From Rhodothermales bacterium (GTDB lineage Bacteria; Bacteroidota; Rhodothermia; Rhodothermales; JANQRZ01), in contig CBDCBW010000010.1 in assembly GCA_965214485.1 (NCBI GenBank), forward strand, positions 130,594 through 194,593: a DNA stretch of 64,000 nt, given 5' to 3'. Under the pieces are notes generated by a model, which saw nothing but the letters and a program-made list of their open reading frames with translations, was not told the origin of the DNA and made no database searches. Below are positions 37,652-59,614 of the stretch, one piece after another. The position numbers and the translations under genes are program-made. Position 1 is the stretch's first letter. Each line of letters opens with the position of its first letter.

Positions 37652-37767
37652 GGGCGTCGTAGAGGAGAGGGGGAACATAGCCGTGCGCCGTGTGCATCGG
37701 CCAGCAAGGCGTTACACACGGCGCACAGTGGAAGGGGGCCTAAGCCCTGGAACGGGAATATAACGCG

Positions 37768-40158
37768 CTAGGCCTTCTGGGACCAGCGCGACGGCTTCCA
37801 CCACGGCTCGACGGCCTGCTCGCCAGGGCCGTAGCTGTACTTCGAGTACGGTCCGTAGACCCCGTAGCTGTACTTGTAGCCGTAGGCCAGCGATAGGTCG
37901 AACCGGTTGAGCAGCGTCCCGACGACGTGGGCACCGACATCGGACAGGCGCTCGAGGCTGTGGTCGAGGTCGCCCTCTTTCGTCTTCCCTGCTGCCGCGA
38001 CGATAATCGTCGCGTCGGCCTGAGTCGAAAGAAGGACCGCCTCGGTGGCGGCGAGCACCGGCGGCGTGTCAATGATGATCATGTCGAACTGGCCGCGCAG
38101 CATCTCGAGCACGTCGCGCATCCGCTTCGAGCCGAGCAGCTCCGAGGGGCTTTCTATGAGCGTCGGATCGGGGTCGTCCGTCAGGTCCTGCTCGTCGAAG
38201 CCATTGTCGAGAAGGCCTCCGGCGGGCATGACGTAGAGGTTCTCGTCGAGCGAGCTCTGGAAGGCCTGCAGCGACTGCTCTCCGTCGAGGAGCACCTGCA
38301 CGAGGCCCGGCTCCAGACTGCGCCCGAGCAGCGAGTGCTGCTTCGGACGCCGAAGGTCGGCATCGATCAGCAGCGTCCGGCGCTTGGCCTGCGCCATCGT
38401 CAGCGCGAGGTTGGCCGCCGTCGTGGACTTCCCCTCGGAGGGGGCGGCACTCGTCACGAGAAGCGTCTGGACGATCACGCCGGGCCGGCTGAACTGGATG
38501 GCCGTCCGGAGGTGGCGGTAGGCCTCCGCCGCGGCCGAGAGCGGATCGAGCAGCGTGGTGAGACTCGTCGCCACGTTCATCCCTCGGAACTCGGTCACCT
38601 CGTCGCCGCCGTAGGCCTGTTTGATGTGAGGCTCCATGTTGGGAATCACCCCGATGACGTTCTGGTCCCGGTCGCGGAGCTGGTCCGGTTTGTAGATTCG
38701 GTTGTCGAGCTTGTCGCGCACGAAAGCCAGCGCGATGCCCAGAGCGAGGCCCAGCAGCAGGCCCATCGCTATGGTGTTCCAGCGGCTCGGACCCTCGGGC
38801 AGGCCCGGGACCTGCGCCGCGCGGAGGACGCGAGCGTATCCCGGCTCAGACTCCTGAGCGATCTCCGTTTCCTGAAGGCGCTCGACGACGAAGGAGTACA
38901 TCTGCTCGGCCTGCTGGCGCTGGCGCTCTAGACGAGCCAGGTCCGTGGACTGCCCTGGAATCTGGCTCAGTTCGCCCTGCATCTCTCCGATCCGGCGGTC
39001 CATCAGGTTGATGCGGGCGTCGATGCCGTTCATCGTGATGTCGTCCGATATCATCTGCCGGCTCAGCTCGGCGGCGTAGCTGACGGCGCTGGGGCCCTGA
39101 TCGATGCCGCCCGCTGCCAGCACGTCCTCGACGTAGGTTTCCGAGAGCCGCTGCCTCTCGGCTCGGGCAGCCGACAGCCGTCGGTCGATGACAGCAAGCT
39201 CCTCGGCGCGCTTCTGCTGAGCGGCTGTAGCGTCGGTGCCGATCCCGGCTTCAAAGCTCAGGATCGTCTGCTTCCGGTTCTCGAGGCTGGCGATCTCCTG
39301 CTCGAGGGAGACCAAACGCTGGTCCGTCTCCGAGGTCATGCGCTCGACGAGTTGGGGGCTGATCTGTGCCAGCGCCTCCTCGGTCGTCGCCATCTGTGCC
39401 CGGCGCATCTGCCGGTCGAGCTCTGCGCTCTCGCGCTGTGCCTCGAGGCTGGCGATCTGCGAGACCATGGCTTCACCGGACTGGGTGAGGCCGGCAGCCT
39501 GGTTGGTTTCCATAAAGCGCTGCACCTCGTCCTCGGCGGCGCGCAGCTCTTCCAGACGCTGCTCAGCCTGCTCCTCCAAAAACTCGTAGGTCTGGTCGAG
39601 GTACGTCCGGCTCACGTCCTGCGTCTGGCGGACGTATTCCTCGGCGTAGATGTTCGCCAAGCGCGCGGCCTCCTGCCGGTCCAGGCTCTCCGAGGTCACC
39701 TGAATCGCGTTATCCAGCGTCCGGCTCGCAGGGCCGAACTGGACGCGCCCCGTCGGGGGGTAGTTCACGTCCGGGTCCTCGTCGTTCATCTCCTCCAGCC
39801 GCTGGTAGACCCGGCGGTGGATATTCTGGTCGTTCTGGAGAATGAACAGCTCCGTCACCATGGAGCGGTCGCTGCGGACGAAGGGGGTGCCCGAGGCTTC
39901 CGGGGCACCGCTGCCGCCACTCGGTGCCCGCTGGAGCTCGAGCATGACCAGCGCTCGGGCTTGGTACTCGGGCTCCAGCGTCAGGCTGTAGATAAGCGCA
40001 CCGGTGGTGACGAGTACCAGCGCTACGATGATGATCAGCCGCCGCCGGTAGAGGGTGTCGAGAAGTTGCTCCAGCTGCTTGTTCTTCGTCTGCGAAGGGA
40101 TATACGAGTATCCTCCGGAAGAAGCACTACGCTCGCGGTCGGTCTCAGGAGTTTGCAT
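37768..40158 (-). CDS. wzc: Polysaccharide co-polymerase fused to BY-tyrosine kinase (Wzc/GumC-like)
   Basis: 796 aa with an N-terminal TM segment, a long coiled-coil periplasmic region and a second TM segment. The kinase has Walker A SAAPSEGKSTTAANLA, A' LLIDADLRRP and B IIIDTPPV. The C-terminal Tyr cluster is YGYKYSYGVYGPYSKYSYG. Confidence 0.85.
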   Translation of the reverse strand: MQTPETDRERSASSGGYSYIPSQTKNKQLEQLLDTLYRRRLIIIVALVLVTTGALIYSLTLEPEYQARALVMLELQRAPSGGSGAPEASGTPFVRSDRSMVTELFILQNDQNIHRRVYQRLEEMNDEDPDVNYPPTGRVQFGPASRTLDNAIQVTSESLDRQEAARLANIYAEEYVRQTQDVSRTYLDQTYEFLEEQAEQRLEELRAAEDEVQRFMETNQAAGLTQSGEAMVSQIASLEAQRESAELDRQMRRAQMATTEEALAQISPQLVERMTSETDQRLVSLEQEIASLENRKQTILSFEAGIGTDATAAQQKRAEELAVIDRRLSAARAERQRLSETYVEDVLAAGGIDQGPSAVSYAAELSRQMISDDITMNGIDARINLMDRRIGEMQGELSQIPGQSTDLARLERQRQQAEQMYSFVVERLQETEIAQESEPGYARVLRAAQVPGLPEGPSRWNTIAMGLLLGLALGIALAFVRDKLDNRIYKPDQLRDRDQNVIGVIPNMEPHIKQAYGGDEVTEFRGMNVATSLTTLLDPLSAAAEAYRHLRTAIQFSRPGVIVQTLLVTSAAPSEGKSTTAANLALTMAQAKRRTLLIDADLRRPKQHSLLGRSLEPGLVQVLLDGEQSLQAFQSSLDENLYVMPAGGLLDNGFDEQDLTDDPDPTLIESPSELLGSKRMRDVLEMLRGQFDMIIIDTPPVLAATEAVLLSTQADATIIVAAAGKTKEGDLDHSLERLSDVGAHVVGTLLNRFDLSLAYGYKYSYGVYGPYSKYSYGPGEQAVEPWWKPSRWSQKA

Positions 40159-40694
40159 GTCGTAAGGCCTGGTAGGCGTCTGTCGGCGTAAAATAAAAGG
40201 GTGTTAAGCGCGGAGACTTCCTCGCGCTCCACACGCGGCCTAGCACTAAGCCAGTACTAAGAACGTCAACTCTGCAGCCTAAAGGAAATGAAGAAGGTAC
40301 CACTTCCAGCAGGATCACGTCGGCGTCATCAGGCGCAGCGCCCATAGGCTTCTGGCGCAATGGGTGCTGGGCGATTCGCTCAAGGGTTATCGGCCCCCGC
40401 TACGAGCACTCCAGCATAGGCAAGAGCCATTCCGATTCTCGCCCGGCCGATTTCAAATTGTTCGAGCATTTCGAAATTCCCCCTCGGTACCTCTCTATCT
40501 ACTGCTCCTGCTACACACACCCTGCACCTTGCCGCTAAGAGAACCGCACGATTTGTAAGCGCGGCGTCACGCGGGGTGCATAGAGGTGTCAGTAACGGGC
40601 TGCTAAAGGAATCCAGGCCAAACCAGCGCCCCGCACGGTATGTCGCTTGTCAAACGTGGGAGTACGAAACGTGCCCACGACTACCGACAACCCC

Positions 40695-41444
40695 ATGCGA
40701 ACGCGTCTCTGCTTTATCCTCATCGCCCCTCTTTTGCTAAGCCTGGCGAGCGTTGTACGCGCCGATCCTCATTTTGATACGTGCAGCGCGCGCACGGGCA
40801 GCAATGCCACCATCGTAGTCCCCCTTTCTACCGCACGCATCAACGGGGCTCCCATGGAAGAGGGCGACGAGATGGCGATCTTTACCCCGGATGGGGTGTG
40901 CGCCGGCTACACGGTGTGGGAGGACGACCACGCCGTACTCGTCGCCTGGGAAAACAGCCCACTGACCACGGTGGCCGATGGCTTCGAACCGGGACAGCCG
41001 CTGGCGTATGCCATTTGGGATGCCTCCACAGCCGTTGAGTACGGGCGGGGTTTCGGTGGAGTGTACGTAGCCTACAACCTCGTGGTCGCCGAGAGCGAGC
41101 TGTTCGAGACCGATGCCATCTATGTGGTGTCAGACCTCGCTGCCTCGGACGCGGTATCGAACGAAGCATCGGCTCCGGCGACGTTTGCACTCGGCTCTAA
41201 CTACCCCAATCCGTTTGCCCAGCGGACGACCATCCGGTACGAGCTACCCGAGGGTACCCCTGTGACGCTCGAGGTCTTCGACATGATGGGACGCCGGGTG
41301 GCCGTTCTCGTCAACGAGACCATGCCTGCGGGCGAGCACGAGGTCAGCTTCGACGCGGAGAGCAGCTTGTCCAGCGGCGTCTATCTCTATTCGATCCGAG
41401 CAGGGGCATACGCGTCGAACCGAAAGATGACGATCCTCGGCTGA
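40695..41444 (+). CDS. Secreted T9SS-sorted protein of unknown function
   Basis: Start at the ATG at 40695 gives the signal peptide MRTRLCFILIAPLLLSLASVVRA. The C-terminus NYPNPFAQRTTIRYEL...SGVYLYSIRAG...MTILG is a T9SS CTD. Confidence 0.65.
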   Translation: MRTRLCFILIAPLLLSLASVVRADPHFDTCSARTGSNATIVVPLSTARINGAPMEEGDEMAIFTPDGVCAGYTVWEDDHAVLVAWENSPLTTVADGFEPGQPLAYAIWDASTAVEYGRGFGGVYVAYNLVVAESELFETDAIYVVSDLAASDAVSNEASAPATFALGSNYPNPFAQRTTIRYELPEGTPVTLEVFDMMGRRVAVLVNETMPAGEHEVSFDAESSLSSGVYLYSIRAGAYASNRKMTILG

Positions 41445-41679: not shown

Positions 41680-43476
41680 ATGTGCGGGATTGCAGCAGCG
41701 TTTGCCTACGGCGGCTCGGGCGTGGACCCGGCCTGGCTCGGGCGAGCGTGCGACGCGATGGCCGCGCGCGGGCCGGACGGTTCGGGCCTCTGGATGACCC
41801 CGGACAGCCGCGCTGGGCTGGGACACCGCCGCCTCTCGATCATTGATCTGTCCGAGGCCGGCGCACAGCCGATGGCCTCCGGTGCCCACGTCCTCTGCTT
41901 CAACGGCGAGATCTACAACTACCGGGCGCTGCGCGATAACTTGGAGCGCCGAGGGCACCGCTTCGCCTCGCACTCGGACACCGAGGTGCTGCTTCGCCTC
42001 TGGGCCGAGCACGGCGAGGGCATGGTCGAGCACCTCCGGGGGATGTTCGCCTTCGCGCTCTGGGACGCCGAGCGCGGCGGGCTCTTCCTCGCCCGCGACC
42101 CCTACGGCGTCAAGCCGCTCTACCTCGCCGACGACGGCGCAACGTTCCGCGCGGCCTCTCAGGTGAAAGCCCTGCTCGCGGGCGGCGGCATCGACACGTC
42201 GCCGGAGCCGGCGGGCCACGTCGGGTTCTTTTTGTGGGGGCACGTGCCGGAGCCCTACACCTTGTATAAAGGTATCCGCGCGCTGCCCGCCGGGCATACG
42301 CTGTGGATCGACGGCTCGGGCGAGCGCCGCGAGCGCGCGTTCACGACCGTCGACGCCGTGCTGGCCGAGGCCACGCCGGAGCACGTCAACGGAGAGGCCC
42401 GGCACCGGCTCCGCGAGGCGCTGCTCGACAGCGTGCGGCACCACCTCGTGGCGGACGTGGACGTGGGCGTCTTCCTTTCGTCGGGCCGGGACTCGGCGAC
42501 GCTCGCGGCGCTCGCCGCCGAGGTCGGAGGGCGGCTCCGCACCGTCACGCTCGGCTTCGCCGAGTACCGGGGGAGCGAGCACGACGAAGTCCCCCTCGCC
42601 GAGCGCGTGGCGGCGCACTACGGGGCCGAGCACAACACCGTCTGGATCGGCCAGAGCGATTTCCGCGACGCCTTCGAGCGTTTCCTCGCCGCGATGGACC
42701 AGCCGACGACGGACGGCCTCAACAGCTATTTCGTCAGCCGGGCGGCGGCGCAGGCCGGCCTCAAGGTGGCCCTCTCCGGGCTGGGCGGCGACGAGCTCTT
42801 CGGCGGCTACCCGAGCTTTACCGAAATCCCCCGGCTCGTGGCTCTCACCCGGCGCATCCCTCTCGCGGCGCGGATCGGGCCGGGCGTGCGGGCGGTGTCG
42901 GCCCCCGTGCTGCGGCGCTTCACGTCGCCCAAGTACGCCGGGCTGCTCGAATACGGCACCGACTACGCCGGGGCGTACCTCCTGCGCCGGGGGATGTTCA
43001 TGCCGTGGGAGCTGCCCGAGGTTCTCGACCCGGACCTCGTGCGCGAGGGCTGGCGCGCGCTCGATACCCGCGCCCGGCTCAAGGCCACGGTCGCCGATAT
43101 CCGCGCGAGCCGGTTAAAAATCTCGGCGCTGGAGTCGATGTGGTATATGCGGAACCAGCTTCTTCGAGACACCGATTGGGCGAGCATGGCGCATTCGCTC
43201 GAAGTCCGGGTTCCGCTCGTCGATGTCGCGCTGCTGCGCGCCGTCGCCCCGCTCCTCGTTGCCCGGCCCGACCTCGGCAAGCACAGTCTCGCCGAGACGC
43301 CGGCCCGCCCGCTCCCCGACGCCATCTTGCACCGTCCCAAAACCGGTTTCACCACGCCCGTCCGCCAGTGGATGCTGGAGGACGGCACGGTCGCGCCGAG
43401 CGACCGCGGGCTGCGCGGTTGGGCGCGGCAGGTCTACGCGCGCACCTGGGACGCCGCCGCCGGGCCGGTCGCATGA
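41680..43476 (+). CDS. Asparagine synthase (glutamine-hydrolysing)-family amidotransferase
   Basis: 598 aa. The N-terminal MCGIAA provides the Cys2 nucleophile. It has GLGHRRLSIIDL and the PP-loop FLSSGRDSA. In glycan clusters this family commonly amidates uronic acids. Confidence 0.8.
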   Translation: MCGIAAAFAYGGSGVDPAWLGRACDAMAARGPDGSGLWMTPDSRAGLGHRRLSIIDLSEAGAQPMASGAHVLCFNGEIYNYRALRDNLERRGHRFASHSDTEVLLRLWAEHGEGMVEHLRGMFAFALWDAERGGLFLARDPYGVKPLYLADDGATFRAASQVKALLAGGGIDTSPEPAGHVGFFLWGHVPEPYTLYKGIRALPAGHTLWIDGSGERRERAFTTVDAVLAEATPEHVNGEARHRLREALLDSVRHHLVADVDVGVFLSSGRDSATLAALAAEVGGRLRTVTLGFAEYRGSEHDEVPLAERVAAHYGAEHNTVWIGQSDFRDAFERFLAAMDQPTTDGLNSYFVSRAAAQAGLKVALSGLGGDELFGGYPSFTEIPRLVALTRRIPLAARIGPGVRAVSAPVLRRFTSPKYAGLLEYGTDYAGAYLLRRGMFMPWELPEVLDPDLVREGWRALDTRARLKATVADIRASRLKISALESMWYMRNQLLRDTDWASMAHSLEVRVPLVDVALLRAVAPLLVARPDLGKHSLAETPARPLPDAILHRPKTGFTTPVRQWMLEDGTVAPSDRGLRGWARQVYARTWDAAAGPVA

Positions 43477-44609
43477 GAATCCTCGCGCTCATCACCGACG
43501 GCTTCGGCACCTCGGGCGGCATCGGCAAGTTCAACCGGGACTTGATGGAAGCGCTGTGCACGCACCCCGACGTGCGCGAGGTCGTGGCGCTGCCCCGGCT
43601 GATGGCCGACGGCACCGAGGCCCCGGCCAGCGGCCCGTTCGAGAAGCTGACCTACCTCACCGACGGCGTCAACGACAAGGCTCGCTACGTGCTCACGCTC
43701 GGGCGGCACCTCCTGCGCGATGCGGACTACGACCTCGTCCTCTGCGCCCACATCAACCTTTCGCCGCTCGGGTGGCTGTGCCGCCTGCGGACCGGGGCGA
43801 CGCTCGTCCAGGTCGTCCACGGCTCCGAGGCGTGGCACCCGACGGGCCGCGCGATCATCGACCGAGCCGTCCGCAGCATGGACGGTTTCATCACCGTGAG
43901 CGGGGTCACGAAGGGGCGCTTCTCACGCTGGACCGGCCTCGCCCCGGAGACGGGCTTCGTCCTCCCCAACTCCATCGACGCCGAGCGCTTCACGCCGGGG
44001 CCGAAGAGCCCCGCGCTGCTCAGCCGCTACGGGCTGCACGGCAAAACCGTCCTCCTGACGCTGGGTCGCCTCGACGCGGGGGAGCGGGCGAAGGGCTTCG
44101 ACGAGGTGATGGAGGTCCTCGGCGCGCTGGCCGAGGACACGCCCGACCTCGCGTACCTCATCGTCGGCGACGGCTCGGACCGGGCGCGGCTCGAAGCAAA
44201 AGCAGAGCGCCTCGGGCTGGGTGAGCGTGTGGTCTTCGCGGGGTTCATCCCGGAGGACGAAAAAGTCGACCACTACCGGCTGGCCGACGCCTACGTGATG
44301 CCGAGCAAGTGGGAAGGCTTCGGGATCGTGTACCTCGAGGCGATGGCGTGCGGCCTCCCGGTCGTCGGCAGCAGCATCGACGGGAGCCTGGAGGCCATCC
44401 CCGACGAGAGCTTCGGCCTCACCGTGGACCCGGCCAAGCCCGAGGAGCTCAAAGGCGCGGTGCGCGCGTCGCTCGCCCGAGGCCACGGCGTGCCGGAGCG
44501 CCTGAACCACTTCTCGTACGAGAACTTTTCACGCCGAGTGCACGGGATCATCGATGCCTTCGCCGGTACTACGTCGGAATCTGTAGACCGACCGAAGGAA
44601 GCCGCCTAA
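43473..44609 (+). CDS. Glycosyltransferase, GT4-like (GT-B fold)
   Basis: The ATG at 43473 overlaps the upstream stop (ATGA). MRILALITDGFGTSGGIGKFNRD is followed by the C-terminal E-x7-E region YVMPSKWEGFGIVYLEAMACGLPVV. Confidence 0.8.
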   Translation: MRILALITDGFGTSGGIGKFNRDLMEALCTHPDVREVVALPRLMADGTEAPASGPFEKLTYLTDGVNDKARYVLTLGRHLLRDADYDLVLCAHINLSPLGWLCRLRTGATLVQVVHGSEAWHPTGRAIIDRAVRSMDGFITVSGVTKGRFSRWTGLAPETGFVLPNSIDAERFTPGPKSPALLSRYGLHGKTVLLTLGRLDAGERAKGFDEVMEVLGALAEDTPDLAYLIVGDGSDRARLEAKAERLGLGERVVFAGFIPEDEKVDHYRLADAYVMPSKWEGFGIVYLEAMACGLPVVGSSIDGSLEAIPDESFGLTVDPAKPEELKGAVRASLARGHGVPERLNHFSYENFSRRVHGIIDAFAGTTSESVDRPKEAA

Positions 44610-44666: not shown

Positions 44667-45599
44667 ATGAACGAGTCCGACATCACCGTGATCGAGAGAG
44701 AGCCCGAGCCGCTGACGGCAGCGGCCCTGCCCAGCGCGAACGGGCACCCCGCCGAGCCCGAGGAGTTCGTGCGCATCGAGCCGCCGAGCGGGTGGCAGTT
44801 CGTCAACTGGCGCGAGGTCCTCCAGTACCGCGACCTGCTCTGGACGCAGGTGCACCGGGGCGTGACGGTCGCCTACAAGCAGACCGTGCTCGGGTTCGGC
44901 TGGGCCATCATCCGCCCGATATCGAGCATGATCATCTTCACCGTCATCTTCGGCAACCTCGCCAAGGTGCCGTCGGACGGTATGCCGTACGCGCTGTTTT
45001 CGTACGCCGGCCTCCTGCCGTGGCAGTACTTCGGCGGCTCGCTCGGCGGGACGACGAGCAGCCTCGTCGGCAACAAGGGCCTCTTCACGAAGGTCTACTT
45101 TCCGCGCCTGTTGCTCCCGCTCATCCCGCTGGGCACCGGGCTGGTCAGCTTCGGCATTTCCTTCTGCATCTTCATCGCGCTGATGGTCTGGTACGGCGTC
45201 GCCCCGACGGCCTGGGCGGTGTTCGTGCCGGTGCTCCTGCTGATCCTGATGATGACGGCGCTCGGGGCGGGGCTGTGGCTGTCGTCGCTCGCGCTGCAGT
45301 ACCGCGACGTCGGCAAGATGGTCGGCTTCTCGTCGCAGCTGCTGATGTACGCGGCCCCGGTGGTGTGGCCGGTCTCGCTGATCGCGGAGAAGTTTCCCAA
45401 CAGCTACGAGACCGTCCGGCTGCTCTACGGCCTCTACCCGATGGCGGGCGTCATCGAGGGCTTCCGGGCCTCGCTCCTCGGGACCGTCCCGATGCCGTGG
45501 GACCTAATCGGGATGGGGGCGCTCACGGCCGTGACGCTCACCGTGACCGGCGCGTTCTACTTCCGGCGCACCGAGCACCTTTTCGCCGACGTGGCTTGA
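44667..45599 (+). CDS. wzm: ABC-2-type polysaccharide transporter permease (Wzm/KpsM/TagG-like)
   Basis: Six-helix ABC-2 permease pattern (YKQTVLGFGWAIIRP..., LFTKVYFPRLLLPL). ATG at 44667, with an alternative TTG at 44643. Confidence 0.8.
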   Translation: MNESDITVIEREPEPLTAAALPSANGHPAEPEEFVRIEPPSGWQFVNWREVLQYRDLLWTQVHRGVTVAYKQTVLGFGWAIIRPISSMIIFTVIFGNLAKVPSDGMPYALFSYAGLLPWQYFGGSLGGTTSSLVGNKGLFTKVYFPRLLLPLIPLGTGLVSFGISFCIFIALMVWYGVAPTAWAVFVPVLLLILMMTALGAGLWLSSLALQYRDVGKMVGFSSQLLMYAAPVVWPVSLIAEKFPNSYETVRLLYGLYPMAGVIEGFRASLLGTVPMPWDLIGMGALTAVTLTVTGAFYFRRTEHLFADVA

Positions 45600-45629
45600 G
45601 GCCGCCTCGGCTCGCTGCTGCGGGGAGCT

Positions 45630-46544
45630 ATGGAGCGCATCATCGTCGGCGGGATGCCCCGGACGGGCACGAGTTGGACGGGCCGGGTGCTCGGCTTCGC
45701 TCCCGGCTACACCTACTACCGCGAGCCGGACAACTTTGACAACGTCGAGGGCATCGAGCGCTACGTGCCGTACCTCTACCTGCCGAGCGGCGGGGACCAC
45801 GCGCCGTACCGACGCCACATGGACCGGGCGCTCAGCGGCAAGATCGCCACGCCGTTCACCATGCGCGATGCCGGCGGCCCCCTCCTCAGCCGTCTGCCGC
45901 CGCGGTGGCGGGGCCTCGGCCGCCGCCTCCCGGCGCTCTACCTTCGCCGGCCGAACACGATCGTCAAGCTCGTCCACTCCAGCTTCGCGCTCGACTGGCT
46001 CCAGGCCCGGTACCCGGCGGCCCGCGTCGTCTACCTGCTCCGCCACCCGTGCGGGCAGTTCGCCAGCGTGCGGCGCCTCGGCTGGCAGCCGAAGCCGCAC
46101 CGCCTGCTGTGGAGCGACGCCCTCGTGGGGGACTACCTCCGGCCATTTGAGGACCTGCTCCGGTCCGCCGAAACTTTCTGGGAGCGAGCCGGTGCGCTGT
46201 GGGGGGCCACGAACTACGTCGTGCACCGGCAGTACGCGCGCGGCACCCCGCGGGCGCTGCTCCCCTTCGAGTGGCTCTGCCAGGACCCCGCCGCCCGGTT
46301 CCGCCTGCTCTTCGAGCGCCTCGGCCTCCGGTGGACCGCCGACGCCGAAGCGTTCGTCGCCGACCGGCCCGCCGAGACCTCCGACCGTCCCTTTTCCCTG
46401 AACCGAAAGTCCGAAGAGCAAATCGACAAGTGGCGGACGGAGGTCTCGGCGGAAGACGCCGAGACGTGCCGCCGCTTCGCCGAGCCCTTCGGGCTGCCGT
46501 TCTACGCAGACTTCGACCCGTGGGCGGCTGAGGCCCTCTGGTAG
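45630..46544 (+). CDS. Sulfotransferase (PAPS-dependent, cytosolic type), paralog of 48891-49853
   Basis: 304 aa with the 5'-PSB loop GGMPRTGTSW and the 3'-PB-like YLLRHPCGQFAS. Its C-terminal half aligns with the 48891 gene (DKWRTE...FA.PFGLP). It lies between wzm and wzt. Confidence 0.7.
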   Translation: MERIIVGGMPRTGTSWTGRVLGFAPGYTYYREPDNFDNVEGIERYVPYLYLPSGGDHAPYRRHMDRALSGKIATPFTMRDAGGPLLSRLPPRWRGLGRRLPALYLRRPNTIVKLVHSSFALDWLQARYPAARVVYLLRHPCGQFASVRRLGWQPKPHRLLWSDALVGDYLRPFEDLLRSAETFWERAGALWGATNYVVHRQYARGTPRALLPFEWLCQDPAARFRLLFERLGLRWTADAEAFVADRPAETSDRPFSLNRKSEEQIDKWRTEVSAEDAETCRRFAEPFGLPFYADFDPWAAEALW

Positions 46545-46577
46545 GCCCCCTCCCCTCTCGCGCACTCCCTCCCTGTT

Positions 46578-47900
46578 ATGCCCCGTCCCGCAATACGAGT
46601 CGAGAACCTCGGCAAACGCTACCGCATCGGCGTCGAAGAAGAGCAGCACGAGACGCTCCTCGGCGCGATGGGGTCGTGGGTCACGGCCCCGCTCTCCAAC
46701 TACCGCCGGCTCCGAGAGCTCAGCCACTTCGGCGACCCCGACGAGGAGCGCGCCGACGTGATCTGGGCGCTGCGCGACGTGTCGTTCGATATCCAACCCG
46801 GCGAGGTCGTCGGGTTCATCGGACGCAACGGGGCCGGCAAGTCGACCCTGCTCAAGCTCCTCTCGCGCATCGCCTACCCCACGCTGGGCTCGATCGAGCT
46901 GGTGGGCCGCGTCTCGGCCCTGCTCGAGGTCGGGACCGGGTTCAACGGCGAGCTGACGGGGCGCGAGAACGTCTTTCTCAACGGGACCATCCTCGGGATG
47001 CCGAAGAGCGAGATCACCCGGAAGTTCGACGAGATCATCGAGTTCTCCGGCGTCGGGCAGTTCATCGACACCCCGGTCAAGCGCTACTCGTCAGGGATGA
47101 AGGTCCGCCTCGGGTTCGCGGTCGCGGCCCACCTCGAGCCGGACATCCTGGTCGTCGACGAGGTGCTCGCCGTGGGCGACGTCGCCTTCAAGAAGAAGTG
47201 CCTCGGCAAGATGGACGAGGTCTCGCAGTCCGGCCGGACGGTGCTCTACGTCAGCCACGAGATGAGCACCGTGACCAACCTGTGCCAGCGCGCCTACGTC
47301 CTCGACGCGGGCCGGATCGTCTACGAAGGGCCCGTGGACGAGGCCGTCGAGTGGTACCTCGACGACATGGAGGTGATCGACCGGAACAACCTCCGCCTCG
47401 ACGAGATCGACGCCGAGGACCGGGGCGGCGACGGCCGGCTGCGCTTCACAGCGGCCTACCTCGTCAACGAGAAGGGGCGGCAGACGCGCGCGCCGATGTC
47501 GGGCGAGCCGGTGGACCTGGTGCTCGAGTACGAGGCCGAGGAGGACCTGCCCCGCGTGACGGTCTGGTTCAACATCGAGAACCACCTCGGCGTCCCGGTG
47601 TCGATCTGCCACATGCGCTCCCACGAGGAGACCTACCACATCCGCAAGGGCCGGGGGCGCATTCGGTGCCGCCTCTCGAAGCTCCCGCTCCCGGTCGGTA
47701 CGTACCAGATCAAGCCGCACGCGAAGGACTACCTGATGCGCCAGAAGCTCGACGACGTGGACGCGGCGCTCGAGTTCGAGGTCGGGGCCAGCACGTTTTT
47801 CAAGTCGGGCTACATCCCCGACATCCGCTACTCGACCGTACTGCTCGACCACGAGTGGGCCCACGAGGAGACCGTCGACGAGCCGGTCGCTCAGCCCTAG
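46578..47900 (+). CDS. wzt: ABC polysaccharide transporter ATPase with C-terminal glycan-binding-type domain (Wzt/TagH-like)
   Basis: 440 aa. The NBD has Walker A GRNGAGKST, signature YSSGMKVRL and Walker B ILVVDE. An about 190-aa C-terminal extension has Wzt_C-like beta-sandwich character (RLRFTAAYLVNEKG...VDLVLEYEA...). Confidence 0.8.
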   Translation: MPRPAIRVENLGKRYRIGVEEEQHETLLGAMGSWVTAPLSNYRRLRELSHFGDPDEERADVIWALRDVSFDIQPGEVVGFIGRNGAGKSTLLKLLSRIAYPTLGSIELVGRVSALLEVGTGFNGELTGRENVFLNGTILGMPKSEITRKFDEIIEFSGVGQFIDTPVKRYSSGMKVRLGFAVAAHLEPDILVVDEVLAVGDVAFKKKCLGKMDEVSQSGRTVLYVSHEMSTVTNLCQRAYVLDAGRIVYEGPVDEAVEWYLDDMEVIDRNNLRLDEIDAEDRGGDGRLRFTAAYLVNEKGRQTRAPMSGEPVDLVLEYEAEEDLPRVTVWFNIENHLGVPVSICHMRSHEETYHIRKGRGRIRCRLSKLPLPVGTYQIKPHAKDYLMRQKLDDVDAALEFEVGASTFFKSGYIPDIRYSTVLLDHEWAHEETVDEPVAQP

Positions 47901-47925: not shown

Positions 47926-48861
47926 ATGGACCTCTCCCTGAGCACGGCGGACCTGTGGGCCGAGGCCGAGGCCTGCACCGGGCGCGCCACCGTCTTCATC
48001 GTCGGCAGCCCGCGCAGCGGGACGACGTGGCTCCAGCGGCTGCTGGCGAGCCACTCGCGCGTCAAGACCGGGCAGGAGTCGCACCTCTTCAGCCAGTACC
48101 TCGCGCCGCAGCTCCGGCAGTGGCGCAGGTCGCTCGCCCGCACGGCCGACCCCGAGTTCCAGGGCCGGAGCGGCCTCGGCCTCGGCGGCTACCTGAGCGA
48201 AGACGAGTTTCTGAGGGTCCTCCGGGTCTACGTCGTGGCGATGCAGCGAGCGGCGGGGGTGGAGCGCGGGGACCTGTTTCTGGAGAAGAGCCCGTCGCAC
48301 GCCCGCGTGATGCCGGAGATCAGGGCGGTCCTGCCCGAGAGCCGGTTCGTGCATCTCGTCCGCGACCCGCGCGACGTCGTGGCCTCGCTCGTGGCGGCGT
48401 CCCAGGGCTGGGGCAGCAAGTGGGCACCCAGCGACGTGACCGAGGCCGCCCGCGTGTGGGTCAGCCACGTCGAAGCCGTGCGCGAAGCCGCCGCCGACCT
48501 GCCCCCGGGCGCGTTCACGCAGGTGCGCTACGAAGACCTCGCCGCCGACACGCCGGGGGCCCTGCAGACGCTCTGCGGTTTCCTCGGGCTGGAGTGGGAC
48601 GCGGAGCAGATCGCCCGCGCCGTAGACGCCAACCGGCGGGACAAGGCGAGGCAGGGCGGCGGCACGCCGATCCCGCTCTACGGCCACCACCGAAAGCACG
48701 AGGGCGACGTGGCGGTCGAGCCCGAGGGGTTCGTCCGCAGAGCCGGGGAGAGCGGCGGCAAAGACGCCCTGTCGCTCAAGGAGAAAAAGCAGGTCTGGAC
48801 CGAGGTGCACCCCACGATGAAGGCCCTCGGCTATTCCTGGAAACTCACCGACTGGCTCTGA
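47926..48861 (+). CDS. Sulfotransferase (PAPS-dependent)
   Basis: 311 aa with the 5'-PSB loop VGSPRSGTTWLQRLL and the 3'-PB HLVRDPRDVVASL. Confidence 0.75.
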   Translation: MDLSLSTADLWAEAEACTGRATVFIVGSPRSGTTWLQRLLASHSRVKTGQESHLFSQYLAPQLRQWRRSLARTADPEFQGRSGLGLGGYLSEDEFLRVLRVYVVAMQRAAGVERGDLFLEKSPSHARVMPEIRAVLPESRFVHLVRDPRDVVASLVAASQGWGSKWAPSDVTEAARVWVSHVEAVREAAADLPPGAFTQVRYEDLAADTPGALQTLCGFLGLEWDAEQIARAVDANRRDKARQGGGTPIPLYGHHRKHEGDVAVEPEGFVRRAGESGGKDALSLKEKKQVWTEVHPTMKALGYSWKLTDWL

Positions 48862-48890: not shown

Positions 48891-49853
48891 ATGCCCACTC
48901 TCTCGCCCCTCGCCGGAGCCGGCCGCGTCGCGGCCCTCGTTCGCAGCGCCCGTGCGCTGCCGAGCGATCTCCGCGCGGCCCGCCGCCCGCCGGTCTTCGT
49001 GATCGGGCTGCCGCGCTCGGGGACGACGTGGGTGGCCTCGACGCTGGCCCGGGCCGAAGGCGTCCGCTACCTCCACGAGCCGTTCAACGCGACGCACATC
49101 CCGGCGGCCCGACCGTTCTACATGCGCTACCTCCGCGCCGCCGACCCGGCCCCGGCCTTCGAGCGCTACAGCCGCGCCGCCTTCGCCGGGCGCGCCGACT
49201 ACAACGGGCACCACGGCGCGAAGGCCGACCACGCGCTTCAGCGGCGCTGGTGGTGGCCGAGCCGCGCGCTCGTCAAAGACGTCCACGCCTGCCTCGCGCT
49301 GGACTGGATCAGCCACCACATCGGGCCGCAGATCGTGATCGTGCTCCGGCACCCGTGCGCCACCGCGGCCTCGTGGGCGCGGCTGCGCGAGCGCGCGCCG
49401 ACCGACTGGAACTGGCGGAGCATGGACCCGCACCTCGGCACGCTCCTCTCGCAGCCGGCCCTCCTGGACGACCACCTCGCTCCGTTCCAGGAGGTGCTGG
49501 AGTCCGCAGAGACCTATTTCGAGAAGCTCGGCGCGTTCTGGGGCGCGTCCAACTACGTCATGCTCCGGCAGCAGGAGCAGCACCCGGAGTGGCTCGTCGT
49601 GCAGCACGAGGCGCTGTGCCTGGAGCCGGAGGAGGCGTTCCGCGAGCTCTTCGGCATCCTCGGGCTGGAGTGGTCCCGCGAGGCGCAGCAGCGGCTCGAG
49701 CACGACACCACCGCGACGAGCAACCGCCCCTACGTCCTCAAGCGCGTCTCGAAGGAGGAGCCCGACAAGTGGCGGACCGAGCTGAACCAGGCCGAGGCCG
49801 ACGAGGTCCTCCGCTTCGCCCGCCCCTTCGGCCTCCCCGTGTCGATCGACTGA
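48891..49853 (+). CDS. Sulfotransferase (PAPS-dependent), paralog of 45630-46544
   Basis: Start at the ATG at 48891, in frame with the 47955 track ORF. It has IGLPRSGTTWVASTL and VLRHPCATAASW. Confidence 0.7.
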   Translation: MPTLSPLAGAGRVAALVRSARALPSDLRAARRPPVFVIGLPRSGTTWVASTLARAEGVRYLHEPFNATHIPAARPFYMRYLRAADPAPAFERYSRAAFAGRADYNGHHGAKADHALQRRWWWPSRALVKDVHACLALDWISHHIGPQIVIVLRHPCATAASWARLRERAPTDWNWRSMDPHLGTLLSQPALLDDHLAPFQEVLESAETYFEKLGAFWGASNYVMLRQQEQHPEWLVVQHEALCLEPEEAFRELFGILGLEWSREAQQRLEHDTTATSNRPYVLKRVSKEEPDKWRTELNQAEADEVLRFARPFGLPVSID

Positions 49854-49866: not shown

Positions 49867-50937
49867 ATGCCCGTCCCCTCTTCGGACCAGCGCTCGCCCG
49901 CCGTCAGCGTCGTGATGTCGGTCTACAACGGCGCGCGGTACCTGCGCGAGGCGCTGGACAGCGTCCTCGCCCAGACCTTTACCGACTTCGAGGCGGTGTG
50001 CATCGACGACGGCTCGACGGACGAGACGCCGGCGATTCTCGCCGAGGCTGCGGAGCGCGACGGTCGGGTGCGGGTAATCTCGCAGGAGAACCAGGGGCTG
50101 ATCGCGGCGCTGAACCGGGGGTGCCGCGAGGCGCGCGCCCCGCTCATCGCCCGGATGGACGACGACGACGTGTGCCACCCCGAGCGCTTCGAGCGCCAGC
50201 TCGCGTTCCTCGACGCCCACCCCGAGGTCGGCGTCCTCGGCACGGTGGCGGCGTACATCGACGCCGGCGGGGAGCTCACCGGTGGGCGGTGGCCACGCTG
50301 GTCACCCGCGGGGGCCAACGGCTGGAAGACGCTTTTCCGCACCAACGTCTGCCACCCGACCGTCGTCATGCGACGCGCGGTGCTGGAGACCCTCAGCGAC
50401 GACGCCGGCCCCTACCGTGCCGGGGCGCTCCACGGCGAGGACTACGAGCTGTGGACGCGGGCGCTCTTCGCGACGCGCATCGCCAACCTGCCCGAGGCGC
50501 TCCTGACGCGGCGCAAGCACGACGGCACGATCGGCGCGCAGCACGCCGAGCGCCAGGAGCAGACCGTCGTCGAGGCGATGCAGCAGGCCCACGCGCGGCT
50601 GCTCGGGCGCGAAATCCGGCTCGGCACCGTGGCGCTCGTGCGGCACCTCGTCCTCCGCAACGCCGCGCCCGAGGCACCGCCGGAGCGCCTCGAAGCGGCA
50701 GCCGTCCTCATCCGCGACCTGTACGATGCCTACACGGCGCAGTTCACGCTCGACGCCGACGAGGCGGCGTGGGTCCGGCGCGACGCCGCCCGGAAGCTGC
50801 TCCGGCTCGCCCAACGGGTCCGCCCACGGTCCGCCGGCACCTACCTCACGGTCATGAACCTGCTGATGCGCGTCGAGCCGCGCGCGATGCTACGCGAGGT
50901 CGGCGCGCGGCTCCGGCGCAAGGTAGCCCGGACCTAA
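49867..50937 (+). CDS. Glycosyltransferase family 2
   Basis: VSVVMSVYNGARYLREALDSVLAQTF..FEAVCIDDGSTDET...MDDDD is the GT-A DxD pattern. Confidence 0.8.
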   Translation: MPVPSSDQRSPAVSVVMSVYNGARYLREALDSVLAQTFTDFEAVCIDDGSTDETPAILAEAAERDGRVRVISQENQGLIAALNRGCREARAPLIARMDDDDVCHPERFERQLAFLDAHPEVGVLGTVAAYIDAGGELTGGRWPRWSPAGANGWKTLFRTNVCHPTVVMRRAVLETLSDDAGPYRAGALHGEDYELWTRALFATRIANLPEALLTRRKHDGTIGAQHAERQEQTVVEAMQQAHARLLGREIRLGTVALVRHLVLRNAAPEAPPERLEAAAVLIRDLYDAYTAQFTLDADEAAWVRRDAARKLLRLAQRVRPRSAGTYLTVMNLLMRVEPRAMLREVGARLRRKVART

Positions 50938-50975: not shown

Positions 50976-52055
50976 ATGTCCCTCCGCGTGTTCAGCGTCC
51001 CGCCCAAGAGTAAGAACCCCTACATCCAACTGTTCTACCAAGCCCTCGAGCCCTACGGCGTCGAGCACGCCGACGAGTTCCACCTGTCGCCGAAGTGGGT
51101 GGAGGAGGAGCTCGGTCCGGGGGATGTGCTCCACTTCCACTGGCCGGAGATGCTCTGGGCCGGGGAGCGCTCCACGGTGAAGGTGCTCGCCAAGCTCTGG
51201 CGGATGCTGCGGGCCGCCGGGCGGCGAGGCGTCAAGCGCATCTGGACCGTCCACAACTTCGACCTCTTCGAGGAGGACACGTGGCTCGACCGGCTCGGCC
51301 TCCACCTCCTCGCCCGCCACAGCGACCTCCTCATCGTCCACCGCCCGACGATGGTCGAGTGGGTCCAGGACCGCTTCAAGCCGAGCGCGCCCGTCATCGT
51401 GATGCCACACGGGAACTACGAGGGGTACTACCCGCCGCCGCGGCCCCGCGCCGAGATCATGCGCGACCTCGGCATCGACGAGGGCCAGACGCTGCTCTGC
51501 TGCCTCGGGCGGATCCGCGACTACAAGGCGCTCGAGGTGGCCTGCGAAGCCTTCTCCCAACTCGGTGACGGGGTGTCCCTCATCATCGCCGGGAAGGTGC
51601 ATCAAGGCTATGACATCACGGTCATCGAGGACTACGCGGCGAAGCTGCCGGGGCTGACCCTCATGCCGACCCACATCTCGGACCAGGAGCTCGTCGACAT
51701 CCTCGCCGCGAGCGAGGCGACGCTCCTGCCCTACCGCCAGATCACCGGCAGCGGGACCCTCATTCTGGCCTGGAGCCACGGCTGCGGCGTCGTCGCCTCG
51801 GACCTCGAGTTCTTCCGCGAGATCATCCCCGCCGACTCCGCCGCCGGGCTGCACTTCCCCGTGGACGACGCCGGGGCGCTCGCCCGAGCCATCGGCGCGT
51901 ACCTTGACGTGCCCCGCGCCGAGCGGAAGGAGGCTGCCCTCGCCGAGGCCGCAAAATACGACTGGGACAAGTGCGTCGCCCCGCTCGGTGCCATCCTCCA
52001 GAGCTGGCAGGAGACCCATCCATCCTCTGACCTCGCCACCCAGCCCGCCTCCTGA
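50976..52055 (+). CDS. Glycosyltransferase, GT-B fold (GT1/GT4-like)
   Basis: Start at the ATG at 50976 (MSLRVFSVPPKSKNPYIQLF). The C-terminal half has LLCCLGRIRDYKALE...LLPYRQITGSGTLILAWSHGCGVV. Confidence 0.6.
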   Translation: MSLRVFSVPPKSKNPYIQLFYQALEPYGVEHADEFHLSPKWVEEELGPGDVLHFHWPEMLWAGERSTVKVLAKLWRMLRAAGRRGVKRIWTVHNFDLFEEDTWLDRLGLHLLARHSDLLIVHRPTMVEWVQDRFKPSAPVIVMPHGNYEGYYPPPRPRAEIMRDLGIDEGQTLLCCLGRIRDYKALEVACEAFSQLGDGVSLIIAGKVHQGYDITVIEDYAAKLPGLTLMPTHISDQELVDILAASEATLLPYRQITGSGTLILAWSHGCGVVASDLEFFREIIPADSAAGLHFPVDDAGALARAIGAYLDVPRAERKEAALAEAAKYDWDKCVAPLGAILQSWQETHPSSDLATQPAS

Positions 52056-52876
52056 TGCCGACCGCTACGTCCCTCCTTCGGCGCGCCTACCGCAAAGTCC
52101 GCCCCCACGGTGCGTCGCGGGCGGTGGAGCTGGAGAGGCTCTTCTTCCTCCACATCCCCAAGTGCGGGGGCACCTCGATCGACGCCGCCCTGCTCGATGC
52201 CTACCGCGCCGCCGGGGCTCTCTCCACCCACCTCGATCCCCGCGCCTCGGCGCGCGCAGCCGAGGCAGCCGGAGAGAACATCCACGACTTCCGGCACCAC
52301 CTGCTGCTCTACTACATGGCTAGCCGAGCCCGTCACCTCTCGGGACACTTCCGGTTCAGCGAGACCGCGCGCGGGGCGTTTGAGGAGTGGCGCTACGTGA
52401 CGGTCCTGCGCGACCCCGTCAAGCGCTGGCTCTCGAACTTCTTCTTCAACAAGTACAAGGACGACGGGCACTTTCAAATCGACGAGCCCATCGAGCGCTT
52501 CATCGAGTCGGAACGGGCCGAGTTCTACGGGTGGAACTACGTCTCGTGCCTCACCGACCGGGCCCTTTCGGCCTCCCCCGGCACCGAGGAGGCCATCGAG
52601 CGGGCTGTTGCCAACGTCGAGGCATTCGCCGTGGTCGGGGTGCTGGAGCGGCTCGACGTGTTCACGGCCGACTGCGAGCGCTACTTCGGCGTGAGCCTCA
52701 ACGTCGAGCACCGGAACAGGAGCCCGCACCCGGCGGGGCAGCAGCGCGAAGAGCTGAGCGACGAGATGCACGAGCGCATCCGCGCGCTCTGCGAGCCCAA
52801 CCGCCGGGTCTACGACGCCGCCCGCGCCCGCATCGACCGCCATGGCTCCTGGCTCACCGCACCGCCCTCGCCCTGA
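52055..52876 (+). CDS. Sulfotransferase family 2-type enzyme, module copy 1
   Basis: 273 aa with FLHIPKCGGTSID (5'-PSB of the membrane-type carbohydrate sulfotransferase family) and LRDPVKRWLS (3'-PB). Confidence 0.7.
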   Translation: MPTATSLLRRAYRKVRPHGASRAVELERLFFLHIPKCGGTSIDAALLDAYRAAGALSTHLDPRASARAAEAAGENIHDFRHHLLLYYMASRARHLSGHFRFSETARGAFEEWRYVTVLRDPVKRWLSNFFFNKYKDDGHFQIDEPIERFIESERAEFYGWNYVSCLTDRALSASPGTEEAIERAVANVEAFAVVGVLERLDVFTADCERYFGVSLNVEHRNRSPHPAGQQREELSDEMHERIRALCEPNRRVYDAARARIDRHGSWLTAPPSP

Positions 52877-53862: not shown

Positions 53863-53868
53863 GCTCCG

Positions 53869-57590: not shown

Positions 57591-57613
57591 TCCCTCCCCG
57601 ACTCCAGCCTCGC

Positions 57614-59609: not shown

Positions 59610-59614
59610 GCCCG

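Follow-up and report, generated by a model that had tools for sequence, protein, structure and literature searches.

The window is a stretch of 64,000 nucleotides from a Rhodothermales bacterium. The genes wzm, D and wzt lie consecutively on its plus strand within positions 44667–47900 (Table 1). GC3 is 0.93–0.95 in the reading frame of wzm, D and wzt, and because the gaps between neighboring genes are only 25–33 bp, the three are read as an operon. An earlier note on this DNA had placed a sulfotransferase gene between a permease gene and an ATPase gene here; Pfam and GC3 confirm this arrangement. According to Pfam the cluster around them (41.7–63.7 kb) encodes five sulfotransferases (D, F, G, J and L) and at least 11 glycosyltransferases. 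The only non-glycosyltransferase tailoring genes are those for the sulfotransferases and one AsnB-like enzyme, the product of gene A, which scores 384 bits against TIGR01536 and exceeds the cutoff. A domain search among the cluster genes found no methyltransferase, kinase or Kdo-transferase domain, and the nearest methyltransferase gene (6783–7562) is on the opposite strand, far beyond the cluster. The start of gene B was set by the GC3 frame switch. The modules J-K and L-M are paralogous and share an identical stretch of 477 bp. Three divergent genes upstream probably act in the same pathway, judging by their adjacency and by the same pairing in two other loci (L041 and L075). We tentatively regard 44667–47900 as encoding the transporter at the core of an operon that spans at least 22 kb (41.7–63.7 kb) and would produce a heavily sulfated glycan by an ABC transporter-dependent route. 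The EPS of R. marinus carries sulfate esters as revealed by FTIR (PMC9590192).

Table 1. Features of the wzm/wzt region of the window.
Feature	Position	Strand	Description	Supporting match
WecA-like gene	35478–36758	-	divergent; initiating phosphoglycosyltransferase	Glycos_transf_4 E 6e-41; TIGR02380
OPX-like ORF	37157–37678	-	divergent; small, secreted	signal-like N-terminus
Wzc-like gene	37768–40158	-	divergent; PCP tyrosine kinase	Wzz, GNVR, AAA_31; Wzc models
A	41680–43476	+	AsnB-like glutamine amidotransferase; opens conserved block	Asn_synthase E 8e-60; GATase_7
B	43473–44609	+	GT4-family glycosyltransferase	Glycos_transf_1 E 3e-34 on enclosing ORF
wzm	44667–45599	+	ABC-2 permease	ABC2_membrane E 2e-10
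D	45630–46544	+	PAPS-type sulfotransferase, 304 aa, between wzm and wzt	Sulfotransfer_3 E 2e-11
wzt, NBD	46578–47378	+	residues 1 to ~267	ABC_tran E 1e-21
wzt, C-terminal CBD	47379–47900	+	residues ~268–440	Wzt_C (PF14524) E 3e-13
wzt, codons K379-P380-H381	47712–47720	+	strand homologous to T346/A348 floor of A. aeolicus methyl pocket	translation checked
wzt, codon D393	47754–47756	+	position of A. aeolicus W362	translation checked
F	47926–48861	+	sulfotransferase, immediately 3' of wzt	Sulfotransfer_3 E 6e-40; Sulfotransfer_1 E 2e-17
G	48891–49853	+	sulfotransferase, D paralog, second gene past wzt	Sulfotransfer_3 E 1e-12
H	49867–50937	+	GT2	Pfam
I	50976–52055	+	GT1-type	Pfam
J	52055–52876	+	Sulfotransfer_2-like	
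L	53869–54684	+	Sulfotransfer_2-like	
J-K and L-M	52055–55610	+	tandem modules, each a Sulfotransfer_2-like gene and a GT2 gene	Pfam
N, O, P, Q, R, S	55674–63663	+	N double GT2; O PRTase-like; P GT2; Q/R/S GT4/GT1-type	Pfam

Six loci, including the window, carry Wzt proteins of one clade (the others are L001, L002, L003, L044 and L045). The block AsnB-GT4-wzm-D-wzt-F is kept in L001–L003 and L044. In 5/6 of these loci D separates wzm from wzt; the exception is L045, where wzt follows wzm directly and sulfotransferase genes lie downstream. An F-type gene is found directly 3' of wzt in all six. Gene A is syntenic, with 81–83% identity in L001/L002 and 69% in L044, gene B is syntenic in L001–L003 and L044, and Wzm is 76–77% identical in L001–L003. 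H and I are syntenic in L001–L003, and G has orthologs in L002 (65%) and L045 (54%).

The PAPS motifs of D, P10-R11-x-G13-T14-S15-W16 and R138-H139-P140...S146 (RHPxxxxxxS), are invariant or nearly so among 21 homologs. Its AF2 model (pLDDT 90) is a compact single domain, and all matches listed in a PDB fold search with this model are sulfotransferases or sulfotransferase domains, including TPST, the CurM sulfotransferase and heparan-sulfate sulfotransferases. By fold and PAPS motifs D is a PAPS-dependent sulfotransferase with predicted activity. G had been called a close paralog of D two genes downstream of wzt. It is a paralog and occupies that position, but at 37% identity it is not close. 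The sulfotransferase F, which among solved structures is closest to the CurM sulfotransferase and TPST, was absent from the earlier note; J and L bring the total to five.

Wzt (440 aa) aligns over its full length with A. aeolicus Wzt (8DKU, E 2e-63). The residues of the NBD motifs GRNGAGKST, YSSGM and ILVVDE (Walker A, signature and Walker B, respectively) are invariant in 65 homologs. A C-terminal extension of about 190 aa had been reported; the extension is present, and it is about 175–180 aa long. Pfam places a Wzt_C match at residues 280–409 (50.4 bits; cutoff, 30.4), and the family profile of this carbohydrate-binding domain (CBD) matches the A. aeolicus CBD structures 8DKY and 6O14 at E 1e-11. 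The AF2 monomer model of the CBD has a pLDDT of 89. In a Foldseek search of the PDB with this model the top 17 hits were all Wzt CBDs; they include the domain of the O12 system, which binds Kdo (5HNO/5HNP), that of A. aeolicus, which binds methyl, and 2R5O, the C-terminal domain of an E. coli Wzt, which we take to be the O9a protein. The region is thus predicted to fold as proposed, and the window Wzt has a genuine jelly-roll CBD of the cap-binding type, for which cap binding is predicted from sequence and model.

Wzt proteins with a CBD export capped chains only, the cap being the ligand of the CBD (PMC9445017, PMC11231755). The A. aeolicus WzmWzt system, which recognizes a 3-O-methyl-mannose/rhamnose cap (8DKU, 8DKY, 6O14; PMC9445017), resembles the window in its architecture, Wzm together with a Wzt in which a C-terminal jelly-roll CBD follows the NBD. 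Foldseek aligned the isolated A. aeolicus CBD with the window CBD model at a target-normalized TM-score of 0.78–0.80. In A. aeolicus L300, T346 and A348 form a small hydrophobic methyl pocket and W362 stacks on the methyl cap (PMC9445017). An HMM alignment for which the invariant G-x-Y motif served as anchor, and which gives side-chain orientation by homology only, pairs I299/L300, T346, A348 and W362 with W330/F331, K379, H381 and D393 of the window. The small hydrophobic pocket and stacking Trp of a methyl-cap-type CBD are therefore missing from the window Wzt. Its trap loop is basic, unlike that of A. aeolicus, and 1–2 residues longer than in the nearest relatives from loci that lack sulfotransferases; the locus itself has sulfotransferases and no methyltransferase. 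A test for a basic sulfate-binding pocket had been proposed. Lys and His do replace T346 and A348, by homology, but the overall charge of the CBD is ordinary (pI 6.0–8.7 vs 4.7–9.3 in relatives).

In most relatives from loci without sulfotransferases residue 379 is small and residue 393 is Trp. Lys was found at 379 in 6/8 sulfotransferase-linked loci and 1/34 others, or in 6/7 and 0/16, respectively, when only adequately flanked loci were counted, and an aromatic residue at 393 in none of the eight sulfotransferase-linked loci and 27 of the 34 without a sulfotransferase; these counts are not phylogenetically independent, as four of the eight linked loci are close relatives. Two loci, L044 and L045, carry sulfotransferases yet have A or M at 379. 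Lys-379 together with a non-aromatic residue at 393 recurs in two other sulfotransferase-linked wzm/wzt loci that are only distantly related. The first, L048, has the order sulfotransferase-wzm-wzt-GT-GT-sulfatase, and the nearest relatives of its CBD are domains not linked to sulfotransferases, with N, S or T at 379 and mostly Trp at 393. The second, L075, was chosen for its Lys alone; its context, seen only afterwards, is wzm-wzt followed by four sulfotransferase genes. These results support a cap pocket rebuilt toward a basic, non-aromatic character, with a sequence signature that tracks sulfotransferase-linked loci in three lineages.

Comparison with characterized systems shows where the window departs from them. 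In the WbdD-Wzt systems of E. coli O9a/O8 (K. pneumoniae O3/O5), too, wzm/wzt adjoin a tailoring gene and the Wzt carries a CBD. The kinase-methyltransferase WbdD contains a coiled-coil ruler, whereas D is a single-domain sulfotransferase in whose AF2 model no coiled coil was seen. A crude check of all cluster proteins, by length of stretches free of P and G, found none longer than 54 aa. As an anionic cap, the methyl-phosphate of the WbdD-Wzt systems sets a chemical precedent for sulfate in this role (PMC9445017, PMC11231755). The best Foldseek match of the window CBD (E 3e-9) is that of the WbbB-Wzt system of K. pneumoniae O12 and Raoultella terrigena, which has a beta-Kdo cap (5HNO, 5HNP). 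This CBD recognizes an anionic terminal residue, as is proposed for the window; sequence similarity between the two is too low for a comparison of their pockets. The O12 cap is a sugar added by the GT99 module of a coiled-coil protein (PMC11231755), unlike the window cluster, which has no such module. Set beside the ruler-type terminators WbdD, WbbB, ORF6-O7 and ORF7-O4, the window likewise has candidate genes adjoining wzm/wzt (D and F), an arrangement kept in its relatives, but no methyltransferase, kinase-methyltransferase or Kdo-transferase domain was found in the cluster and no coiled coil was seen.

A sulfotransferase-domain gene also directly adjoins wzt in Aeromonas salmonicida A450, as judged from its published description. 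In that O-antigen cluster wzt (438 aa) is followed by a sulfotransferase-domain ORF and then by WbbB; no sulfate was found in the repeat unit and the authors left the sulfotransferase gene unexplained (PMC4483657). From its length alone the A450 Wzt should carry a C-terminal extension. Unlike the window, A450 is a gammaproteobacterium with one short (216 aa) sulfotransferase-like ORF, and its WbbB homolog is possibly itself the terminator.

We suggest, at somewhat less than even confidence, that the CBD reads a terminal sulfate added by D or F and so licenses export. About 11 glycosyltransferases would build the glycan on a lipid carrier in the cytoplasm, where the five PAPS-dependent sulfotransferases would sulfate it, and Wzm/Wzt would then flip it over the inner membrane. 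The CBD pocket is rebuilt with K379, H381, D393 and a longer basic trap loop where A. aeolicus holds its 3-O-methyl cap. Export would be licensed once the CBD has bound a non-reducing terminal sugar that bears sulfate, and the licensing sulfate would come from one of the Sulfotransfer_1/3 enzymes, D or F, whose genes adjoin those of the transporter. The gene content and order, the CBD fold, the sulfotransferase fold and PAPS motifs, and the pocket substitutions with their sulfotransferase association are results of the analysis, whereas a sulfated ligand, the terminal position of the sulfate, its stopping of polymerization and the choice of enzyme are inferred. The idea of a sulfate cap read by the Wzt CBD, already put forward in the earlier note, is partly supported, by the CBD itself, by the pocket signature and by the finding of no other terminator domain in the cluster; sulfate is a putative terminator. 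The choice of D as cap enzyme fares less well. D does sit between wzm and wzt, but its family occurs without these genes, its slot is empty in L045, and F is more consistently linked to wzt.

The sulfotransferases could instead be decorative. All five would then act on internal residues of the repeat unit, the CBD would read some other cap, such as a residue that the AsnB-like enzyme has amidated or a unique terminal sugar from one of the ~11 glycosyltransferases, and the position of D would be meaningless; the genes would be in the operon because PAPS is cytoplasmic and sulfation must come before export. We consider this rather doubtful, though several observations are consistent with it. The D family occurs at 50–58% identity in 33 other genomes (Gemmatimonadales, Novosphingobium, Rhizobium, Nocardioides, Acidimicrobiia and others) that lack wzm/wzt within 10 kb. 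The two contexts viewed gene by gene, in Sphingobium lignivorans and a Gemmatimonadales MAG, have D homologs with 50–57% identity and all PAPS motifs, which, unlike D, adjoin Wzx-type (Polysacc_synt) flippase genes and GT2 genes. Their sulfation must be on the repeat unit rather than the polymer terminus, and the D family is therefore not dedicated to termination. Besides the empty slot of L045, unrelated genes fill the wzm-wzt slot in other loci: a DCC1-like protein, an FkbM methyltransferase with an epimerase, or an unknown protein. Sugars such as Kdo are among the known caps (PMC11231755), and AsnB-like genes adjoin wzt in L041 and L046, the nearest relatives without sulfotransferases, and also in L058 and L070. 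Purely internal sulfation nevertheless leaves the change of Thr to Lys and the loss of the stacking Trp, specific to sulfotransferase-linked loci in three lineages, unexplained, and no Kdo-transferase-like or other recognizable terminator domain was found in the cluster.

If the cap is a sulfate, the gene may still be another one. An unlikely alternative is that F or G adds the recognized sulfate and D decorates internal residues. It fits the 6/6 linkage of F-type genes to wzt, against 5/6 for D, and the gene after wzt in L075, whose Sulfotransfer_1 product matches the model of the F family. F (51–66% identity) and the CBD (63–65%) also diverge fastest in the block, compared with 70–77% for D and 84–88% for the NBD. 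Adjacency and divergence rates are weak evidence, however, and the sole sulfotransferase gene of L048 precedes wzm, and its product matches the D model and the F model only weakly. Five sulfotransferases make internal sulfation very likely, so sulfate alone may not mark the terminus and the basic pocket could equally bind internal sulfates. This leads to the quite improbable reading that the CBD binds the sulfated chain anywhere, as a recruiting module with no termination checkpoint, and that another component, for example the neighboring Wzc-like protein, sets chain length. The polysulfated polymer indicated by the gene content and the lack of a detected coiled-coil ruler in the cluster agree with it, as does a Wzc-type chain-length/co-polymerase gene next to the operon, paired in the same way in L041 and L075. 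On the other hand, every characterized Wzt CBD binds a terminal epitope (PMC9445017, PMC11231755), and the substitutions fall exactly at the cap-pocket positions rather than surface-wide, with net charge ordinary.

Recognition of a terminal sulfate by the CBD would be a plausible variant of capped-glycan export with a sulfate tag. That a terminal sulfate ester is an export license read by a Lys-lined Wzt CBD pocket, and that at least three distant lineages (the Rhodothermales clade, L048 and L075) have evolved or acquired this variant, is proposed with considerable reservation. If true, sulfate would join methyl, methyl-phosphate and Kdo among the caps known so far, and the sulfate-cap variant would be recognizable by sequence from Lys at the T346 equivalent and loss of the aromatic residue at the W362 equivalent.

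According to the established model, Wzt proteins with a C-terminal carbohydrate-binding domain (CBD) export capped chains only, and methyl, methyl-phosphate and Kdo are the only caps demonstrated so far (PMC9445017, PMC11231755). Since the window has a G+C content of about 70%, gene calls followed the reading frame whose third codon positions are rich in GC. The + strand carries every gene between 41.7 kb and at least 63.7 kb, with gaps of 0–63 bp. The wzm permease gene, the sulfotransferase gene and the wzt ATPase gene that the earlier note placed at 44667-47900 are all real and lie at those coordinates. The note spoke of two sulfotransferases, but the cluster actually holds five (D, F, G, J and L). 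The downstream gene it regarded as a close paralog of D, gene G, is indeed related to D but is not close, with an identity of only 37%.

Genes of the glycan operon (A to S), the divergent genes upstream of it and the probable lasso-peptide gene cluster, in window coordinates
Gene	Position	Strand	Assignment
NTP_transf_5 nucleotidyltransferase	25104-26294	-	lasso-peptide cluster
ABC exporter	29115-31025	-	lasso-peptide cluster
HprK-related kinase-like gene	31054-32145	-	after lasso cyclase
Lasso cyclase	32491-34950	-	lasso peptide isopeptide-bond-forming cyclase; NCBIfam NF033535 at 760 bits (cutoff 525)
WecA-like	35478-36758	-	initiating transferase; upstream of operon, divergent
OPX-like	37157-37678	-	small secreted ORF; upstream of operon, divergent
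Wzc-like	37768-40158	-	tyrosine-kinase co-polymerase; upstream of operon, divergent
A	41680-43476	+	AsnB-like amidotransferase
B	43473-44609	+	GT4
wzm	44667-45599	+	ABC2_membrane
D	45630-46544	+	Sulfotransfer_3
wzt	46578-47900	+	ABC_tran + Wzt_C
F	47926-48861	+	Sulfotransfer_3/1
G	48891-49853	+	Sulfotransfer_3
H	49867-50937	+	GT2
I	50976-52055	+	GT1-type
J	52055-52876	+	Sulfotransfer_2-like
K	52879-53862	+	GT2
L	53869-54684	+	Sulfotransfer_2-like
M	54687-55610	+	GT2
N	55674-57590	+	two GT2 modules
O	57614-58627	+	phosphoribosyltransferase match, weak
P	58644-59609	+	GT2
Q, R, S	59615-63663	+	GT4/GT1-type

Genes for a Wzc-type PCP tyrosine kinase and a small OPX/SLBB protein adjoin the Wzm/Wzt(CBD) pathway in the window and in two other loci, L041 (5501-8324), which encodes one of the nearest CBDs outside the window's Wzt clade, and the distant L075 (3747-6872). 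Pairing of a Wzc-type PCP with OPX normally goes with Wzy-dependent systems. The presence of these genes beside Wzm/Wzt suggests a capsule or EPS, not an LPS O-antigen, as the product. Sulfate esters were detected by FTIR in the EPS of R. marinus (PMC9590192), an experimental precedent for sulfated polymers in this order.

Gene O, 337 aa long and inside the glycan cluster, may be a candidate PRPP-dependent ribofuranosyl-adding enzyme by analogy; a PRPP-using step has been described for K. pneumoniae O4 (PMC11231755). The tandem modules J-K and L-M share 477 bp of perfect identity (52774-53250 and 54582-55058) and are only 55–70% identical outside it, a pattern that points to recent gene conversion or assembly collapse. 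Gene N, an internal duplication, has the same pattern: about 230 bp near each module start are 99–100% identical and the remainder 45–75%. Elsewhere in the window is the probable lasso-peptide gene cluster (25104-34950), with two genes of unknown or phosphatase-like family between its ABC exporter and NTP_transf_5 genes. T9SS C-terminal sorting domains (Por_Secre_tail) occur in proteins encoded at 1885-5295, 9038-12857 and 40647-41444, two of them with DUF4397; one such gene is directly upstream of the glycan operon.

D carries PAPS-binding motifs that are invariant among 21 homologs. Its AF2 model is single-domain and confident (pLDDT 90), with no additional domain or coiled coil seen. The fold matches listed are without exception sulfotransferases or sulfotransferase domains, namely TPST, the CurM sulfotransferase, and heparan-sulfate 3-OST and NDST. 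Motifs and fold bear out the earlier assignment of the gene between wzm and wzt as a PAPS-type sulfotransferase. In none of the cluster proteins did a crude scan detect a long stretch compatible with a helix. Outside the clade, D-family genes were found in 33 genomes at 33–58% identity, mostly 48–58%, with hosts that include Gemmatimonadales, Novosphingobium, Rhizobium, Nocardioides and Acidimicrobiia. In none of the 33 does wzm, or a wzt with a Wzt_C domain, lie within 10 kb of the gene, and a tie of the D family to Wzm/Wzt was therefore rejected outside close relatives. Both D-family contexts inspected have Wzx-type flippases instead. This distribution argues that the D family, taken as a whole, consists of ordinary glycan sulfotransferases and is not dedicated to termination.

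The C-terminal extension of Wzt has the Wzt_C fold that the earlier note attributed to it, as Pfam, profile, AF2 and PDB comparisons agree. Wzt_C scores 50 bits on the window protein (Pfam cutoff 30), and alignment of the full-length protein to A. aeolicus Wzt extends over part of the CBD. A profile built from 31 CBDs finds 8DKY and 6O14, crystal structures of the A. aeolicus CBD, with E 1e-11; the family profile was required, as phmmer of the CBD against the PDB gave nothing relevant. AF2 models residues 262-440 as an all-beta sandwich (mean pLDDT 89). Wzt CBDs account for all 17 top PDB matches of this model: 5HNO/5HNP, the O12 domain that binds Kdo; the methyl-binding domain of A. aeolicus; and 2R5O, the C-terminal domain of E. 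coli Wzt. The CBD alone found no match in a 5.8-billion-protein index, which was then queried with full-length Wzt. For the metagenome scan the 31-sequence CBD alignment was too diverse and a 7-sequence clade alignment was used; it returned only distant relatives (at most 47% identity) and no further clade members.

In the A. aeolicus CBD the 3-O-methyl group lies in a small hydrophobic pocket of L300, T346, A348 and W362, which is closed by a trap loop, residues 352-356 (PMC9445017; PDB chain numbering is the paper's plus 1). These positions were mapped by profile alignments anchored on the invariant G-x-Y motif. The window Wzt has W330/F331 at I299/L300, K379 at T346, H381 at A348 and D393 at W362, and translation confirmed the pocket codons. 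The trap loop corresponds to DYLMRQK, which is basic and 1–2 residues longer than in the nearest relatives without sulfotransferases. By alignment, then, methyl-binding features were lost and a lysine and a histidine gained. H345, R347, H349 and R363 are further basic residues particular to the clade. For the basic sulfate-binding pocket that the earlier note proposed to test for, K379 and H381 are candidate residues. Global basicity of the CBD was rejected since pI and net charge overlap those of relatives; the differences are confined to local residues of the pocket.

Rhodothermales MAGs are the closest genomes, with D 70–77% identical. The block AsnB-GT4-wzm-D-wzt-F is syntenic in the close loci L001 and L002, from GT4 onward in L003, and again in the more distant L044 (NBD 73–74%, CBD 47% identical). 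In L045, of the same Wzt clade (CBD 50% identical), wzm directly precedes wzt, which is followed by F-type and G-type sulfotransferases. An F-type gene is directly 3' of wzt in 6/6 clade loci, and D lies between wzm and wzt in 5/6. The nearest non-clade CBDs, 42–46% identical to that of the window, come from loci without sulfotransferases. The idea that they too sit with sulfotransferases was rejected; there is instead a methyltransferase directly after wzt in L043, pyruvyltransferases in L042 and L046, and an AsnB-like gene after wzt in L041 and L046.

AsnB-like genes, of two different types, recur beside wzm/wzt in this CBD family, including sulfotransferase-free loci (L041 11282-13081, L046 7961-9751, L044 4336-6213, L058 7-1509 and gene A of the window). 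They might provide an amide-type modification relevant to the cap. Only one of 29 more distant metagenome loci, L048, has a sulfotransferase, in the order regulator-sulfotransferase-wzm-wzt-GT-GT-sulfatase. The sulfatase (10867-12249) at the end of this small operon is odd in a biosynthetic locus and could trim sulfate after export.

Every locus of known context was tabulated, 8 sulfotransferase-linked and 34 other. Lysine at position 379 is present in 6/8 sulfotransferase-linked and 1/34 other loci (Fisher p ~4e-5), and an aromatic residue at 393 in 0/8 and 27/34, respectively (p ~6e-5); both tests are at locus level and ignore relatedness. Among loci with room for neighbouring genes, the lysine counts are 6/7 and 0/16. 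The relatedness problem is reduced by two distant loci. L048 has K and R at 379 and 393, while its nearest CBD relatives, from sulfotransferase-free loci, have N/S/T and mostly Trp, so the change in L048 looks independent. Protein P0177 was chosen solely for Lys-x-His at the pocket positions, before the context of its locus, L075, was seen. L075 has wzm-wzt, three sulfotransferases, a GT and a fourth sulfotransferase, with a CBD only about 24% and sulfotransferases 23–33% identical to those of the window. The exceptions are L044 and L045, which are sulfotransferase-linked yet have A or M at 379. The sole other locus with the lysine, L078 (P0138), is on a short contig, and a 2-residue insertion makes the alignment there ambiguous; its Wzt, with 560 aa, is atypical, and no sulfotransferase gene comes next. 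Arg or His at 379 was rejected as a sulfotransferase predictor, as L076 and L077 lack sulfotransferases. Most CBDs of sulfotransferase-free loci in the alignment of L046-L074 keep Trp at the W362 position and a small residue at the T346 position. Methyl-type caps may thus be the default in this CBD family, and two alignment columns may suffice to read cap chemistry.

Judged by its genes, the system operates in the manner of capped O-antigen export in E. coli O8/O9a, K. pneumoniae O12/O4/O7 and A. aeolicus; the transporter belongs to the same family. No coiled-coil protein was seen in the cluster, nor was a methyltransferase, kinase or Kdo transferase found, which sets the system apart from the prototype terminator class. 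No known type of cap-making enzyme was found in the locus, and sulfotransferase genes flank wzt on both sides. The best-supported reading, given somewhat less than an even chance, is that the CBD recognises a residue bearing sulfate and that this residue most likely sits at the non-reducing end. Between D and F as the enzyme that would add this sulfate, conservation beside wzt favours F, if anything. Since there are five sulfotransferases, internal sulfation of the polymer is almost certain too, in which case the epitope would be a particular sulfated terminal sugar and not sulfate as such.

There are two main rivals. All of the sulfotransferases may only decorate the chain while the CBD reads some other cap, or the CBD may bind internal sulfates of the chain. 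In one published O-antigen cluster, that of A. salmonicida, an unexplained sulfotransferase-domain gene adjoins wzt, and the repeat unit showed no sulfate (PMC4483657). As the earlier note supposed, a sulfate terminator appears undescribed: literature searches found no description of a sulfate cap or terminator. The 2019 Glycobiology census of Mann, Kimber and Whitfield, which reportedly predicted new capping chemistries, may already name sulfotransferases as candidates.

Even if the sulfate cap idea is wrong, the locus is a clear example of an ABC-dependent glycan cluster with five sulfotransferases. Sulfated bacterial polysaccharides are of biotechnological interest as heparin-like or carrageenan-like polymers, and for engineering them it would be useful to know the sulfation step that gates export. 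The identity of the residue at the T346 position, together with whether the stacking Trp is kept, may offer a cheap genome-based predictor of cap chemistry. Export of capped glycans by Wzm/Wzt is a well-studied quality-control mechanism. A sulfate cap, if true, would add a new chemistry to the known caps and would connect export control with the poorly understood sulfation of bacterial polysaccharides.
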